Source: Octopus vulgaris | Lineage: Eukaryota | Length of the DNA stretch: 64,000 nucleotides | Direction: 5' to 3' | Assembly (NCBI GenBank): GCA_951406725.2 | Contig: OX597815.1 | Location: 132,246,001-132,310,000, forward strand | In this document: positions 3,247 to 39,511 of the stretch, piece after piece | How the letters are laid out: each line of letters opens with the position of its first letter | Numbering within the stretch: position 1 is the first letter of the stretch | The notes under the pieces: generated by a model | The model's database searches: none | What the model saw: only the letters and a program-made list of their open reading frames with translations | Told to the model about the DNA's origin: nothing | Translations under genes and position numbers: made by a program

Positions 3247-3713
3247 TATATATATATATATATATATATATATATATATATATATATATATATATATATA
3301 TATATATATATATATATATAGAAATTCGGGGTGAGTACTTGATAATTATAAGAACCTGTGTATACCGTTTGGTGGTGTAGGTGGTGTAGGTGTTGATTTA
3401 CTGACAGTTCTACAACTAAATTTTATCAATCTCCTGACCACCATGCTTGGTCCCTAACCTCTATACATCCCTTATCTTTACATTCTTTTACATTTTTATC
3501 ATGTTCTTTTACTTTTTTTACTTTTATTTCTATTTCTATTTTTATTTCTATTTCTATTTTTACTTTATAACCTTATGCCTTTACATTTATTTATATTTCT
3601 TTATATTTCTTTATACCCCCTTTACATCTCCTTACAACTCTTTATATCTTTATCCTCTACATTTTTATATTATTCTACACTTACACTTTTTATATATATT
3701 TTTTATCCCTCGT

Positions 3714-4050
3714 CCCGAACTCTCGCCCCTCCATCTTCACCTCTATATATGTATTTATTTATTTACATTACCTCAACATCCAATTTTCCTCATTCTACAT
3801 TGAGAGAAGAAAGAGATGGACGCTTCAATTCTATGCTGCTGCCGCATTATGTCGTACGTGAACGAGAGGATTTGCATCCCCAACCAAGAATTTTTGATGT
3901 AACACATGTCCTTGTGGAAGCTGTTGTGCGCGGCTGAAGAAGGCCACAGACATACATTATGCTTTGTTATAAATCCGTCTAATAAAGGCCCGAAACATAT
4001 GTACCGCTGAATCCTTCGCATCATGTTTTTATTTTATTTTGATCAATTTA
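3714..4050 (+). repeat. 5' pseudo-LTR (direct repeat of 5151-5487)
   Basis: 337-bp direct repeat, offset 1437; I noticed only two substitutions. Confidence 0.95.
3930..4007 (+). ncRNA. Type I hammerhead ribozyme motif (PLE pseudo-LTR)
   Basis: GCGG-CTGAAGA-aGGCC...GGCCc-GAAAC-ATAT-GTA-CCGC; stem I GCGG/CCGC; palindromic stem III ACATATGT; GUA triplet. Confidence 0.8.
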
Positions 4051-4184
4051 CTCCACCAGCTACACCACCAAACGGTATACACAGGTTCTTATAATTATCA
4101 AGTACTCACCCCGAATTTCTATACTCAACTCACCTACGTTGTCACTAGGATCTGATCCCACGTAACCGCGACAACCTTTAGTAC

Positions 4185-5240
4185 TTGATGAACCCAAGCA
4201 TGAAGATTCAAAGGATTCACACAAACTTCTCCCCCAAGGACATACCTCTCCACTTCGGCAAAACTTACACGACGACTCTCATCCACCGGACCACAGACTT
4301 TATTAGAAGAATTAGGTGGGCGGCCTACCATTTCGATAACCCGGAGAAAAGCAACCCCAACTCTAACCAAGAAGAAATAGCACACAAGAAGATATTTAAA
4401 AGCAGAAGAAACCCACCCTCTAACTACGCACTGGAAAATTTTGAAAAAGACTTAATCGACCTCATTACCAACATCAACATTAGTAAACATAAGACCATTT
4501 CCAACACCCACTTAAGGAGCCTTAAAGATTTCCTGCATTCACTTAGGAACGATGATAGTCTTATCATACCCGCCGACAAGACTGGGAACTGGTATAGGCT
4601 AGACTACCAAACCTACAAATCGCTCATCATGAGGGAACTTAGCAAAAAGTATAAAACTACTTCTACGGATAACCTTAAGGAAATTAACTACAAAATCAAG
4701 GAAGTTATGAGCAAATTAGACCTCCTGGACAGAACGGAACCTATTAAACCACAAGTACCCAAAATTACTATTAAAGACCATAAGAAAGACTTCCCAGATA
4801 GTGTAGGAGTACGATTAATCTGTCCGACTAAATCGGATATAGGCAGACTTAGCAAGACCATCCTGGACAAGGTGATCCCACACATCAAACCCCACATCCC
4901 ACTCCAACTATGGATTAACACCAACGATGTGCTAGAATGGTTTAACACTATCACCAATAGGCCCGACTACTCATTCATCCAATTCGACATAGCTAGCTAC
5001 TACGCCAGTATATCCCCCATCTTACTTAACAAATCCCTTATTTTTGCCCGCAACCTTTCACTCATAGACAGAGAAAAAATTGACATAATTCTATTAGCTA
5101 GAAAAACCATAATAGAATTCGACGGTAGACTCTGGACCAGATCCGATACCCCCGAACTCTCGCCCCTCCATCTTCACCTCTATATATGTATTTATTTATT
5201 TACATTACCTCAACATCCAATTTTCCTCATTCTACATTGA
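4185..5240 (+). pseudogene. Truncated Penelope-like reverse transcriptase (Hydra-clade-like), N-terminal half only; runs into the pseudo-LTR at 5151
   Basis: Motifs IIPADKTGNWY, ITIKDHK, VRLICPTKSDIGRLSKTILDK, LWINTNDVLEWF, FIQFDIASYYASI; no YxDD or GIY-YIG because of a deletion joined at CCCGAAC. Confidence 0.85.
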
Positions 5241-5487
5241 GAGAAGAAAGAGATGGACGCTTCAATTCTATGCTGCTGCCGCATTATGTCGTGCGTGAAC
5301 GAGAGGATTTGCATCCCCAACCAAGAATTTTTGATGTAACACATGTCCTTGTGGAAGCTGTTGTGCGCGGCTGAAGAAGGCCACAGACATACATTATGCT
5401 TTGTTATAAATCTGTCTAATAAAGGCCCGAAACATATGTACCGCTGAATCCTTCGCATCATGTTTTTATTTTATTTTGATCAATTTA
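5151..5487 (+). repeat. 3' pseudo-LTR
   Basis: Direct repeat of 3714-4050, followed by (TA)n. Confidence 0.95.
5367..5444 (+). ncRNA. Type I hammerhead ribozyme motif (second pseudo-LTR)
   Basis: Same motif as 3930-4007. Confidence 0.8.
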
Positions 5488-6419
5488 TATATATATATAT
5501 ATATATATAAATGACTTTTTTTCTCCAGCTGTTTTGCATTTCGTTTTTAGTCAAAGTTTCATTGGTTGATATTCCTGGTCGTTTCGCATCGCTTCCAAAC
5601 AGAAGAGGAGCCATACCAATACACATACTAACGGAACAGAAGCTTATTAAGTAACCCGTGGAAAGAAAAGACAATCAGGACAGCGAAGTTTGTATTCCTA
5701 AACGCTATCAAACTGAAAACCATATACGAATTATAGATACACATTAATTACCTAAAGTAACAAATGTTTGGTTAAGTAAGTATTGGGAAATTTATAGTAA
5801 CTAATTCTGTTTATTATTATGTATAGTCATATTTACAAAAGAGCAACAGAGTAAATTGAAAGAGTATCCAGAACGTATCAGGAGAGGAACATATATACTT
5901 TGTTTTCGTAACGGTTACTTTGAAGTTTTGGCTAATCACAAATAATAACAAAAACACAAAGACGAGCATTTAAAATATTTACAAGCTACGGAATCTTCCA
6001 ACTGTAACTTGAAGTCACTGAACGATAACAAAATAAGACATAATTTCACACAAACATTTCAATCAACATGAAATACACCTACACAGAACGTTAATACACG
6101 AACCGAAGTGAGACAAACAGGAAGTAAAAAAGATTGCAAAAGCAATCAATGAATTATAGTTAAAAATAGAAACAAATTCGGAAAAAAGTTTATAGGTGAA
6201 ACGAAAGTAATCAGGATATAAAATAGATGAACCTAAACGAGGAAAACATGGTGTCAGAAAGAGAACGGAGACTGCATCTCTATATACATTCATATCAAAG
6301 CTACAAAACCAAACATTGCTAAACAATAGGAAACCCACCTAATGAAAATATAGAATGAAAAACGATTTGGTGAATTAGCCAAAAAAGCATAGTCAACATA
6401 TTTAGAAGCATGATGCAGC

Positions 6420-37030: not shown

Positions 37031-37249
37031 ATATATATAAAATATAGCGGCCTACGTATATAAGGACACAAAATGTGTCGAAGCCATCAGAAAGCGTCGA
37101 TGCTTCCTAGGGCTAAACAGCGGTGGTGTAACCCCCCTACTGTCACGTTCACGTTAGACTGACAGTATACAACCATTCTATCGCCCCACCACCGTACATA
37201 TCTCTATGAGAGATTTAGAAATTTAATATTTCTGATATATATATATAGT

Positions 37250-37453
37250 CAATCCAAAATGAACAAAAGAGAAAATACAGCAACCCGAGGACGTGGAACA
37301 AGTATAGTGTTATTGGAAGCTCAGGAACGGAAAGAAAGAAGGACAATTCAACGTTTCGAGCGGAGCTCTTCGTCAGAAACATAGAAAAAGTAAAGGTCCA
37401 AGGAAGGGAAGACGGAGAAAGAAAATTGCCAACGATACACCCACGGTCACACA
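37250..37453 (-). mobile_element. Short PLE-type repeat carrying a minimal hammerhead; related copies at 19590-19682 and 44222-44405
   Basis: Three copies share a block like AACGCGAGGACGTGGAACAAGTATAGTGTTATTGG..GCTCAG. Confidence 0.7.
37347..37379 (-). ncRNA. Minimal hammerhead motif
   Basis: Minus strand TTT-CTGACGA-A-GAGC-TCC-GCTC-GAAAC-GTT-GAA; stem III reduced to the palindrome AACGTT. Confidence 0.7.
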
Positions 37454-37737
37454 TATAAAATGTTATGTACGACGGACTTTTTCAGTTTACCGAATCCACT
37501 CACAAGGTATTGGTTGGTTCAAGGGTATAGTAGAAGACACTTGCCTAAGGTGTCACGCAATGGGACTGAACCCGGAACCATATGGTTGGGAAGCAAGCTT
37601 TTTACTACAGTTGTATATATAAATCCTGTTACTTATTTTGATAATATATATGTATGTGTGTGTGCGTGTTAAATAAAATGACACAAGAAAGCCAGGGCAG
37701 TGTAAAGATTCTAGGATATTTATAAAGAGAAAGGTAG

Positions 37738-37783
37738 TCTCACAGTTGTCTCGGGGGTATGAGGAATATCCCTTCATCAGAGA
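37738..37783 (-). ncRNA. Degenerate hammerhead in a PLE-type remnant (about 37670-37940)
   Basis: Minus strand TCT-CTGATGA-AGGG...CCC-GAGAC-AACT-GTG-AGA. Confidence 0.5.
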
Positions 37784-39511
37784 CGATACGAGAGTTGAAT
37801 AAATGGAATTAGTACAGTTGAATATAAATAGTTATTCTGGAAAGGGAGAGATATAGGAAGCATAAAGGGAAATAAAGGAATAGAAATAAAAGTACATGTT
37901 GGATATTACTGGCTCTTCTGAATACCAAAACCTATTATATCATTGCTATATATATATATATATATATATATTTTTTTTTTTTTTTTCAGAGTAAAACTGT
38001 TTATTTAACAAAGACATTCTCCTCAGTGCCAATCACTATTCGCTATTTCTGCACTGAACACTTGATGGAGATACAATTGACAGTGCAATGTTATTAGCAT
38101 ACTGGGTCATAGCATCAACACTTACGCAAACACACTCTCTCTTTGTAGACTAGAAAAAAACCAAAAGAAATCGCATCCAACTGATTCTCAAAACATCATT
38201 CACTAACACGTTATAATTTCTGATACACCTGTGTGCTGATTAGTTCGTGTATTTCATTTTCTGTTTATTTCTGCGACTGTTCCTGCAGGATTCGCACTTC
38301 TCACCCGCCTGTTTTAGTCACTCACCACTAATTTCATCGTCAACTCTTCTGCTCTCCACCGCTAAGATTTTTGCACAAAAATTTCACATCATATCTTTCG
38401 AATACTGGAATTCCCTCACGCCTACTCTGTTTCTTAACAGCCAGAAGCCAAAATAATAACATGGTGATCATCAAGTATATTTATTTTTTCAAACATTCAT
38501 ACACTGCTCTGACCTTTTGTAGATGATGCGTCGACCCGCCTGAATTGAAAAGTAAAAAGGAAGCAAAACTAAAATCATTGAAAGATTATGCAGAACGCGA
38601 TGTAAACATCACTGATCAATAGTATTCGAATTTTGTAAATCAATATTAAAACATTAAGAGAGTTCTATTATCGACGTTCCATTTTCATGATATATTTGCC
38701 AGACACATATACTCTGTATCTAGCAAGACATTCATTGATGTAGCTGTGTACTCGCTTCTTCTGTCATCTATATTTACAATAATAGGAACTATAGCATCAA
38801 CAAAATTTTCATCAATCATTAATATTACAATAGTCCCCTTCTTAAAAGCAATAGGAAAAGTTCACACTCCTTCGCCGTCGTCCGGGGCGACGCTTTTTTC
38901 ATTCTCTCTGTCGAGGTACATGGAAAATATTTCTATATTGTGAGAAACAGGAATACATACACACATACACACGCACACACACACACACACACACACATAC
39001 ATACATACATACATATAGATAGATAGATAGATAGATAGATAGATAGATAGATAGATAGATAGATAGATAGATAGATAGATAGATAGATAGATAGATAGAA
39101 CGAGAGATAGATGTATAACTTCGTTTATATATATATATATATATATGTTTATAAAAAGTTTATAAAAAGTGTAGGTGGCTATGTTTTTTTTTCTAGTTTC
39201 AGCTCAGAGCTGCGGCCATATATATATATATATACATATATTCCGTGCAGTACGGAATTTTGTCAGTGAACAGGTCGCGGCCTCAAAGCGACGGAAATAT
39301 TTTGACAAATTAAATTTAAATGTTGAAATGAATTTATCGATTTTTGTGTGTTTCTTAAATGACTTATAAACACCTTTCACCCTGCAATTGTTATATATAT
39401 ATATATATATATATATATATATATATATATATATATACAGTGATTGTTTATTGTCAGGAACAAAAAGATTAATAGGACTGCTATAGAAGTGCTCTATTGA
39501 AAGAGACAAAA

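Follow-up and report, generated by a model that had tools for sequence, protein, structure and literature searches.

A putative terminal RNA helix in non-coding, hammerhead-bearing repeats at (TA)n junctions of Octopus vulgaris DNA and its possible link to a Hydra-like Penelope-like element

The 64,000-nucleotide (nt) stretch of Octopus vulgaris DNA analysed here (assembly GCA_951406725.2, contig OX597815.1, positions 132,246,001 to 132,310,000 of the forward strand; hereafter the window, whose numbering is used throughout) has a GC content of 34.7% and is dense in (TA)n tracts, next to which lie a coding Penelope-like element (PLE, 3321-5485) and several short non-coding repeats. In the repeats designated A, B, D and G, an RNA hairpin is predicted at a nearly constant distance from the tail end. 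This conserved helix is a credible new detail, in which we have considerable confidence. With a probability of roughly 0.55, A, B and D, and probably also G and F, represent non-autonomous retroelements of Penelope type that are copied in trans by a (TA)n-targeting PLE protein, and the helix with the leader that follows it is a probable initiation signal. Elements of the A and B type belong to a known kind, the non-autonomous PLE derivatives. A Hydra-type PLE is put forward as the helper more tentatively; that a Hydra enzyme reads the helix is plausible. The preliminary description of this DNA had postulated a linear 12-nt signal in front of (TA)n, shared by the coding PLE and otherwise dissimilar families and exploited by non-autonomous RNAs. 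A cis signal used in this way agrees with the non-coding character, the hammerheads, the PLE-type architecture and the tail-end position that were found, but the signal is not the linear 12-mer and the PLE tail has no hairpin of its own.

Architecture and terminal hairpin of the non-coding families

The insertion of family A (16515-18007) is composed of a 652-nt minus arm, with the short end at 16515, and an 826-nt plus arm, with the tail end at 18007, both built of a 480-nt tandem unit with a hammerhead motif. Family B, with a tandem period of 559-562 nt, is represented by two insertions. B1 (23214-24605) contains an 800-nt minus arm (tail end 23214) and a 586-nt plus arm (short end near 24598), with a unit of approximately 560 nt that also bears a hammerhead motif, and B2 (27290-28474) contains a 1078-nt minus arm (short end 27290) and a 107-nt plus arm, which is the tail alone. 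Each of these insertions, like the PLE, consists of two partial tandems in inverted orientation, whose outward ends both lie in (TA)n. The order within the unit is always hammerhead, short end, tail and tail end; the short end lies 45, 125 and 187 nt past the hammerhead cleavage site, and the tail end 71, 140 and 107 nt beyond the short end, in PLE, A and B, respectively. One outward end is short and the other is a tail end in all four complete insertions, an outcome expected once in 16 if the ends chose freely. The non-coding nature ascribed to A and B was confirmed, the longest open reading frames (ORFs) beginning with ATG being 63 and 41 amino acids (aa), as were their type I hammerheads, their partial-tandem and inverted architecture and their location in (TA)n. 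Hammerhead cores with stems I-III were read by eye in each tandem unit of both families, and a stricter script missed both. The circular fold predicted for the A and B units has z values of -3.1 and -7.1 against 30 shuffles.

Repeat D occurs as D2 (27006-27222, plus strand) and as a tail-only copy, D1 (26637-26757, plus strand), which is 100% identical to 27101-27221 and begins 7 nt before the inferred short site. The bodies of the motif-bearing elements had been described as dissimilar, and this holds for PLE, A and B compared with one another (local z from -0.8 to 1.3), but not for the D sites at 26740 and 27204, which are homologous to B over approximately 210 nt (z 15.5 against the B unit, 0/100 shuffles), so that D is not an independent family. 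The short ends of A, B and D (17838-17867, 24569-24598 and 27078-27107) follow a hairpin closed by GG/CC and the word CTY, with the junction 3-4 nt past the stem. These short-end hairpins are individually weak (z -2.5, -1.5, -1.8 and -0.9), and no clean consensus was found among them.

The tail hairpin of A (17956-17993, plus strand; -14.1 kcal/mol) stops 14 nt before the junction and is more stable than all 200 shuffles (z -5.5). In B the hairpin at 28427-28459 (plus strand), present also at 23229-23261 on the minus strand, stops 15 nt before the junction, with z values of -3.2 and -4.6 for the two copies, and in D2 the hairpin at 27169-27209 (z -3.9) stops 13 nt before it. Two further repeats were absent from the preliminary description. 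G (45688-45769, plus strand, 82 nt) has a hairpin at 45733-45757 (z -2.1) that stops 12-13 nt before an (AT)3/(GT)n junction. F (35045-35362, plus strand, with an approximate 5' boundary) has a hammerhead-like motif at 35109-35189 with G at the cleavage position, and a 7-base-pair (bp) stem at 35326-35347 that stops 15 nt before (TA)n. The 3' strand of the hairpin in A, B, D and G coincides with motif bases one to five, and the C after them is left unpaired. In these four and in F, the template strand of the helix ends in YAYY, is followed by a leader beginning with C, and stops 12-15 nt before the tail end.

In the alignment A4 (five rows, eight base pairs, 40 cells), 39 of the 40 cells are paired (97.5%) and both sides change in four of the eight pairs (1/500 shuffles), whereas controls in slid registers gave 45-60% pairing. 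One pair position samples A-U, G-U and G-C. RNAalifold recovers the same helix unaided, and the strand in hammerhead sense gives the better fold in five of five comparisons. D and G retain the stem although AATT is lost. A stem of at least 7 bp closing on the core is present in A, B, D and G and in none of 51 background cores. Among 88 junctions, a set that includes duplicates and G as a manual addition, a strict helix descriptor accepted five (three lineages), compared with none of 9747 pseudo-junctions, while a structure-only descriptor accepted seven against 1.24 expected and brought in F. The tails of A, B, D and G compared pairwise reach z of about 1-4. An alignment of seven sequences that included C and E, described below, gave no consensus structure, its inputs being short and misaligned. 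In one internal B copy (23781-23792, minus strand), a C-to-T change in the tail stem turns G-C into G-U with pairing kept.

The 12-mer itself is present where it had been reported, with exact matches at 3323-3334 (minus strand, equal to 4106-4117 on the plus strand), 17989-18000, 28455-28466 and 23222-23233 (minus strand), and the looser versions at 18578, 26740 and 27204 exist as well. The site at 39377-39389 is present only if a 1-nt insertion is accepted and is not matched even at one mismatch. Exact matches number 12, compared with 0.5 expected by shuffling. Four of them adjoin (TA)n, seven lie inside the elements as tandem or inverted copies of the three units concerned, and one, at 60687 on the minus strand, is a chance match antisense to what resembles PLE coding sequence. 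Because 11 of the 12 are copies of three units, the excess reflects repeat copy number and was dismissed as evidence. The match at 60687 was also considered as the inverted tail of the PLE at 60.7-63.1 kb and rejected: it has no TA junction and only a 5-bp, GU-rich stem, and it is antisense to a coding-like frame.

The fitted 12-mer by itself proved not to be significant. With 83 non-simple, de-duplicated (TA)n flanks drawn from 106 junctions, the best triple from shuffled flanks reached at least the original 28.8 bits in 150 of 150 runs. After masking of the training families no 12-mer match remained near (TA)n, and its distance to the junction is not fixed (2 nt in PLE, 7 in A, 8 in B and 2 in E). 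A difference from arbitrary (TA)n flanks was recovered in part: the de novo search, tried at four settings, gave TCACCC as the top 6-mer (5 of 83 flanks, equalled in 1 of 40 nulls), but no supported word at k=7 (18 of 40 nulls), and the words ranked first at k=8 and 9 resembled microsatellites. The 7-nt core occurs near (TA)n 12 times against 5.2 expected (p=0.011), 7 times against 4.1 once the training families are masked (p=0.14), and 3 times against 3.9, thus without enrichment, once C and D are masked as well; for TTYACCCT the corresponding values are 7 against 0.5, 4 against 0.25 and 1 against 0.16. In each family the motif is confined to the tail end and never stands at the short end. 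A short pyrimidine core is therefore modestly real. The 12-mer is overfitted and mostly a by-product of the helix, because in the non-coding families it consists of the 3' strand of the covarying stem and the start of the leader.

The Hydra-like coding element and its predicted helix

The element at 3321-5485 is assigned, by its motifs and homologues, to an internally deleted Hydra-like PLE. Its inverted tail arm (3321-3389, minus strand) turns the tail end outward to the (TA)n tract at 3247-3320, contains the motif at 3323-3334, and is identical to 4060-4119 and more loosely similar back to 4051. The pseudo-long terminal repeat (pLTR), a sequence of 3' untranslated region (UTR) type (3390-4048, plus strand), ends at the short site 4048, and its part 3714-4048 equals 5151-5485 at 99.4%. 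A descriptor scan placed a type I hammerhead motif in the pLTR at 3930-4007 (plus strand) and its second copy at 5367-5444, with core to cleavage site at 3934-4003 and 5371-5440. The 71-nt, AC-rich tail (4049-4119, plus strand), which holds the motif at 4106-4117, extends from the short to the tail end and was delimited by comparing junction and read-through copies. The N-terminal part of a Hydra-like reverse transcriptase (RT) ORF (4188-5150, plus strand) is cut by the internal deletion and runs at 5151 into the 3' pLTR portion (5151-5485, plus strand), which stops at the short end; both ends of the element adjoin (TA)n.

The ORF matches proteins of Octopus sinensis and Argonauta hians. Its RWA aligns with the RWK of homologue P0001, and in place of DKG it has ADKT; among 35 homologues of at least 600 aa, DKT/S was found in 33 and ADKG in none. 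The CxCX5C linker, which in the Hydra clade accompanies a C-terminal GIY-YIG domain lacking CCHH, occurs in 18 of these 35, and the corresponding C-terminal region is deleted in the copy of the window. Pfam gave nothing useful for this ORF. The features RW(K/A), DKT, pLTR hammerhead, (TA)n insertion, partial tandem with inverted 5' copy and one-end tail are shared with the Hydra-clade PLEs, which target (TA)n and carry hammerheads and whose published list (File S1) includes one from Octopus bimaculoides (Craig et al., 2021, PMC8557442); statements on published work refer here to the available parts of the sources. In contrast to those elements, the copy described here is internally deleted, and the tails in the window measure 71-140 nt rather than 30-40 nt. 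The available text of that source makes no mention of a terminal RNA helix for the clade. The copy is defective: its RT is N-terminal only, with no RT core past the first aspartate motif, and it has no endonuclease. Therefore, it cannot itself serve as the helper.

The hairpin of the non-coding families does not form in the PLE tail (pairing probability 0.03-0.14; 0.0 kcal/mol when forced; covariance model without a match), and an internal hairpin was rejected (z +1.26). In the read-through RNA a long-range helix of 10 Watson-Crick bp is predicted instead (4097-4189, plus strand), in which 4097-4106 pairs with 4180-4189 in the downstream 5'UTR with a probability mostly above 0.9 and the 3' arm overlaps the ATG at 4188. 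This helix stops 13 nt before the tail junction (1/1000 shuffles, counting any end 9-18 nt away), compared with 14 nt in A, 15 in B, 13 in D, 12 in G and 15 in F, and its template strand ends, as in the other families, in YAYY followed by C. A general helix descriptor accepts PLE, A, B, D, G and F; of 9656 background positions it accepts 46, and when 10 bp are required, 5. The fit of the PLE requires another register, shifted by 4 nt; since its equivalent helix forms with the downstream 5'UTR, the 12-mer match of the PLE is out of register and in part a coincidence. At the level of sequence, a position weight matrix (PWM) of width 12 derived from A, B, D and G scores the PLE end below 1 of 77 background flanks and 7 of 500 shuffles, and no homology of the PLE tail to the other tails was found (z at most 1.8). 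The sequence-only link is borderline. A helix shared with the Hydra-like element is best regarded as a testable lead, with the odds slightly against it.

Several further sequences touch on this element. A second Hydra-like fragment (45921-46364, plus strand), representing a C-terminal part before the endonuclease, has 46% identity over 70 aa to P0007 and ends at (TA)n. Its continuity with G, which lies approximately 150 nt upstream, was not accepted, as the fragment is C-terminal and a microsatellite lies between them. The decayed PLE at about 60640-63110 (plus strand), which we take to be Neptune-like, has a C-terminal GIY-YIG domain after a CxxC-type linker and, near 62930, a degenerate hammerhead; its 3' end adjoins (TA)n, and the core is missing. 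The flank at 39438-39520 (minus strand) has short words in common, by eye, with the published Hydra-2_Ajap tail, and several published Hydra tails have in common a hairpin closed by GCTC/GAGC, possibly a second class of tail signal.

Proposed mechanism and competing explanations

According to the proposed mechanism, a PLE enzyme would nick both strands of (TA)n, dock on the junction between helix and single strand, and begin complementary DNA (cDNA) 12-15 nt 3' of the helix, aided by TA microhomology of 0-4 nt. The other nicked strand would prime at the short site, giving rise to the inverted arm. Both primings would be compatible with one RNA (twin priming) in PLE and B2, whereas A and B1 would require two templates or a multimer. 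TA microhomology of 0-4 nt is present at several ends and absent from the tail end of A. In two of the four complete insertions, PLE and B2, the tail arm reaches no further than the short site, starting 3-12 and 3-4 nt from it, respectively, and 7 nt from the inferred short site in D1. The tail arms at 3321-3389, 28368-28474 and 26637-26757 have the geometry expected of twin priming on one RNA. In its most specific form the proposal would make the Hydra-type RT a helix ruler tolerant of sequence, which binds where duplex and single strand meet (YAYY|C) and begins cDNA 12-15 nt downstream, the helix being either a local hairpin or a long-range one that covers the start codon; unrelated hammerhead RNAs would hijack the enzyme by building such a junction, and two nicked strands would prime on one RNA, at its tail and short sites, to give an inverted, one-tailed insertion. 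As a whole this form is speculative and rather doubtful. A stem placed at a constant distance from the template would be reminiscent of the template-boundary element of telomerase.

The system most closely comparable in mechanism is PAc, Poseidon from Anolis, in which an RT start site lies on either side of the tail, nicking and extension involve both strands, and targets are AT-rich (Frangieh et al., 2024, PMC11167929). In this sole PLE studied in vitro the tail end is an RT start site and the tail is the stretch between two such sites; tails are often found at one end only in PLEs (PMC8557442, Fig. 2 legend). PAc starts cDNA in an AC-rich stem loop, and the PLE tail described here is AC-rich with its end inside the loop of the predicted helix. 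PAc belongs, however, to another clade, and no target homology is reported for it, in contrast to the frequent TA microhomology in the window; in the available text non-autonomous elements do not occur (0 occurrences), and the main text gives no fixed distance from helix to start (PMC11167929). Metazoan non-LTR retrozymes, proposed to be PLE-mobilised or pLTR-derived, likewise have non-coding tandem units with type I hammerheads (PMC7229834; bioRxiv 10.64898/2026.07.22.740005). The monomers of A and B exceed the 170-400 nt given in one source (PMC7229834) and fall inside the 51-972 bp of the other (bioRxiv 10.64898/2026.07.22.740005). A and B differ from them in having the full PLE insertion signature, with an inverted arm and two end types, and no detectable homology to the neighbouring PLE. 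In stringent LINE/SINE (long and short interspersed nuclear element) pairs of the L2 clade, a stem near the RT start is similarly a proposed protein-binding site that non-coding passengers can use (PMC4176376). Here, by contrast, the machinery is that of a GIY-YIG PLE, starts are internal, no tRNA-derived head is present, and the stem base with the leader is conserved rather than a cognate loop. ARAGORN found no tRNA genes in the window, and decayed heads may escape its detection.

How PLE proteins select their RNA and the internal start site is an open question. Only one PLE has been reconstituted so far, with the binding motif mapped just to 172 nt (PMC11167929), and the available text on retrozymes lists their mobilisation mechanism as open and names no cis signal (bioRxiv 10.64898/2026.07.22.740005). 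No description of a shared terminal helix in non-autonomous PLEs, or of twin priming in PLEs, was found in the available parts of the literature, subscription papers and Repbase/Dfam being outside its coverage. The case for retrozymes as PLE passengers has so far come from co-occurrence and pLTR homology, and short non-coding passengers with unlike bodies reveal the minimal signal. If the helix and leader hold, they would provide a testable RNA element of 50 nt and a rule for predicting the helper that moves a given passenger, and would account mechanistically for the inverted tail structure; if the sharing is limited to A, B, D and G, the helix is still a useful marker for annotating unclassified cephalopod repeats.

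A number of observations weigh against transposition in trans by a Hydra-type enzyme through this helix. The strong stem is limited to three independent lineages (A, B/D and G), related sequences can beat the A4 shuffle control, and A alone supplies three of the four two-sided changes. Every descriptor was designed after these sequences had been inspected, G was added to the junctions by hand, and the covariance model R1 recovered nothing beyond its own families, with no match for PLE, C, E or F. The fold of F is no better than shuffles (z +1.1), and C and E fail the helix descriptor. Local alignment of A and B with the two PLEs of the window revealed no pLTR homology. The PLE helix was spotted post hoc after several tries, so that the real p is, in our judgement, perhaps tenfold larger; it is found in one read-through copy, without covariation, places the start site inside a 73-nt loop, which is a different topology, and might do no more than mask the start codon. 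For the PLE end the PWM result is weaker at width 14 (4 of 77 flanks, 37 of 500 shuffles) and width 7 (2 of 77, 55 of 500). Published consensus ends were compared by eye, their type (short or tail) not being defined. The core stands near the end in one of six for Hydra (Hydra-1_Crog, 13 nt from the end) and the search was positive in 2 of 53 Naiad ends of the 54 listed (Naiad_Bpla, stem and CTT 3 nt from the end; Naiad_Tama, core at 10 nt). Moreover, two of the four insertions, A and B1, have long overlapping arms that do not fit twin priming on a single template.

Part of this evidence would be expected if the helix and leader were real in A, B, D and G but the helper belonged to another PLE clade (Neptune- or Naiad-like) or to another Hydra family, the match to 3321-5485 being due to chance. 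The PLE tail without hairpin, its absence from the covariance matches and the missing pLTR homology point in this direction, as do the decayed PLE with GIY-YIG at about 60.7-63.1 kb and the published Naiad_Bpla consensus, whose terminal 6-bp stem has the same base and is followed by CTT. However, the PLE end passes the general descriptor, whose background rate is 0.05-0.5%, and the A hammerhead resembles, by eye, Hydra entries of File S2 (U after the core, 1-nt loop 3), whereas canonical hammerheads are missing from Naiads in the available text (PMC8557442) and octopus Naiad ends lack the core. Another helper is judged unlikely, albeit worth weighing. Alternatively, the ends might be alike through common descent, or the hairpins might have arisen by chance in AT-rich DNA, in either case without contributing to recognition, and terminal repeats of Tc1/mariner type might have supplied some of the CACCC words next to TA. 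The homology of D to B, the pairwise z of about 1-4 among the tails, the unenriched 7-nt core after masking of the named families, and elements of the miniature inverted-repeat transposable element (MITE) type, whose terminal inverted repeats adjoin TA at 10898-11109 and 3054-3168, are in line with this origin. It is nevertheless improbable, as pairing persists while loop length and sequence vary, the stem is missing from all 51 background cores, the spacing to the junction is nearly constant, and E, G, F and D are without terminal inverted repeats. That the RT/endonuclease reads the linear 12-nt sequence directly in all families, as originally proposed, has in its favour the exact matches at four junctions in three families, always at the tail end, the rank of the PLE end with the width-12 PWM (1 of 77) and TCACCC as the top 6-mer. 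The post-hoc null (150 of 150), the lack of any held-out match and the spacing of 2, 7 and 8 nt speak against it; base pairing accounts for the variable Y positions, and D and G keep the stem while losing AATT, which makes direct reading of the linear sequence very improbable. Copying in trans by a (TA)n-targeting PLE protein remains the preferred explanation.

Other elements in the window

E (39235-39391, plus strand) comprises 157 nt between (TA)n tracts and holds the site at 39377; it forms no stable stem (-1.0 kcal/mol when forced) and is an uncertain or decayed member. C (18302-18603) is a 65-bp inverted pair that holds the site at 18578, 29 nt from (TA)n and with a weak stem, and its membership is doubtful. 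In the test for terminal inverted repeats flanked by TA, as in Tc1/mariner MITEs, none were found in E, G, F and D, the scores, C included, being 10-17 compared with 38-44 in two MITE-like elements; the inverted pair of C is internal. The MITE-like sequences at 10898-11109, 3054-3168 and about 3200-3246, presumably Tc1/mariner-like, have terminal inverted repeats adjoining TA and supply CACCC words at TA junctions. A scan with Rfam gave only microsatellite and microRNA noise below threshold and no hammerhead among the 150 of 178 matches listed.

Another short family ending at (TA)n is represented by two copies, 37248-37454 and 44222-44401 (minus strand), which are 74% identical; one has a hammerhead core at 37354-37376, and no motif was found at the end of this family. 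Two near-perfect long palindromes, of 195 and 110 bp, lie at 36810-37002 and 39515-39624. At 44863-45486 (plus strand), where Pfam gave no match, there are reading frames that we take to resemble the C-terminal end of a LINE reverse transcriptase, and downstream a short tandem tail lies between them and (TA)n.

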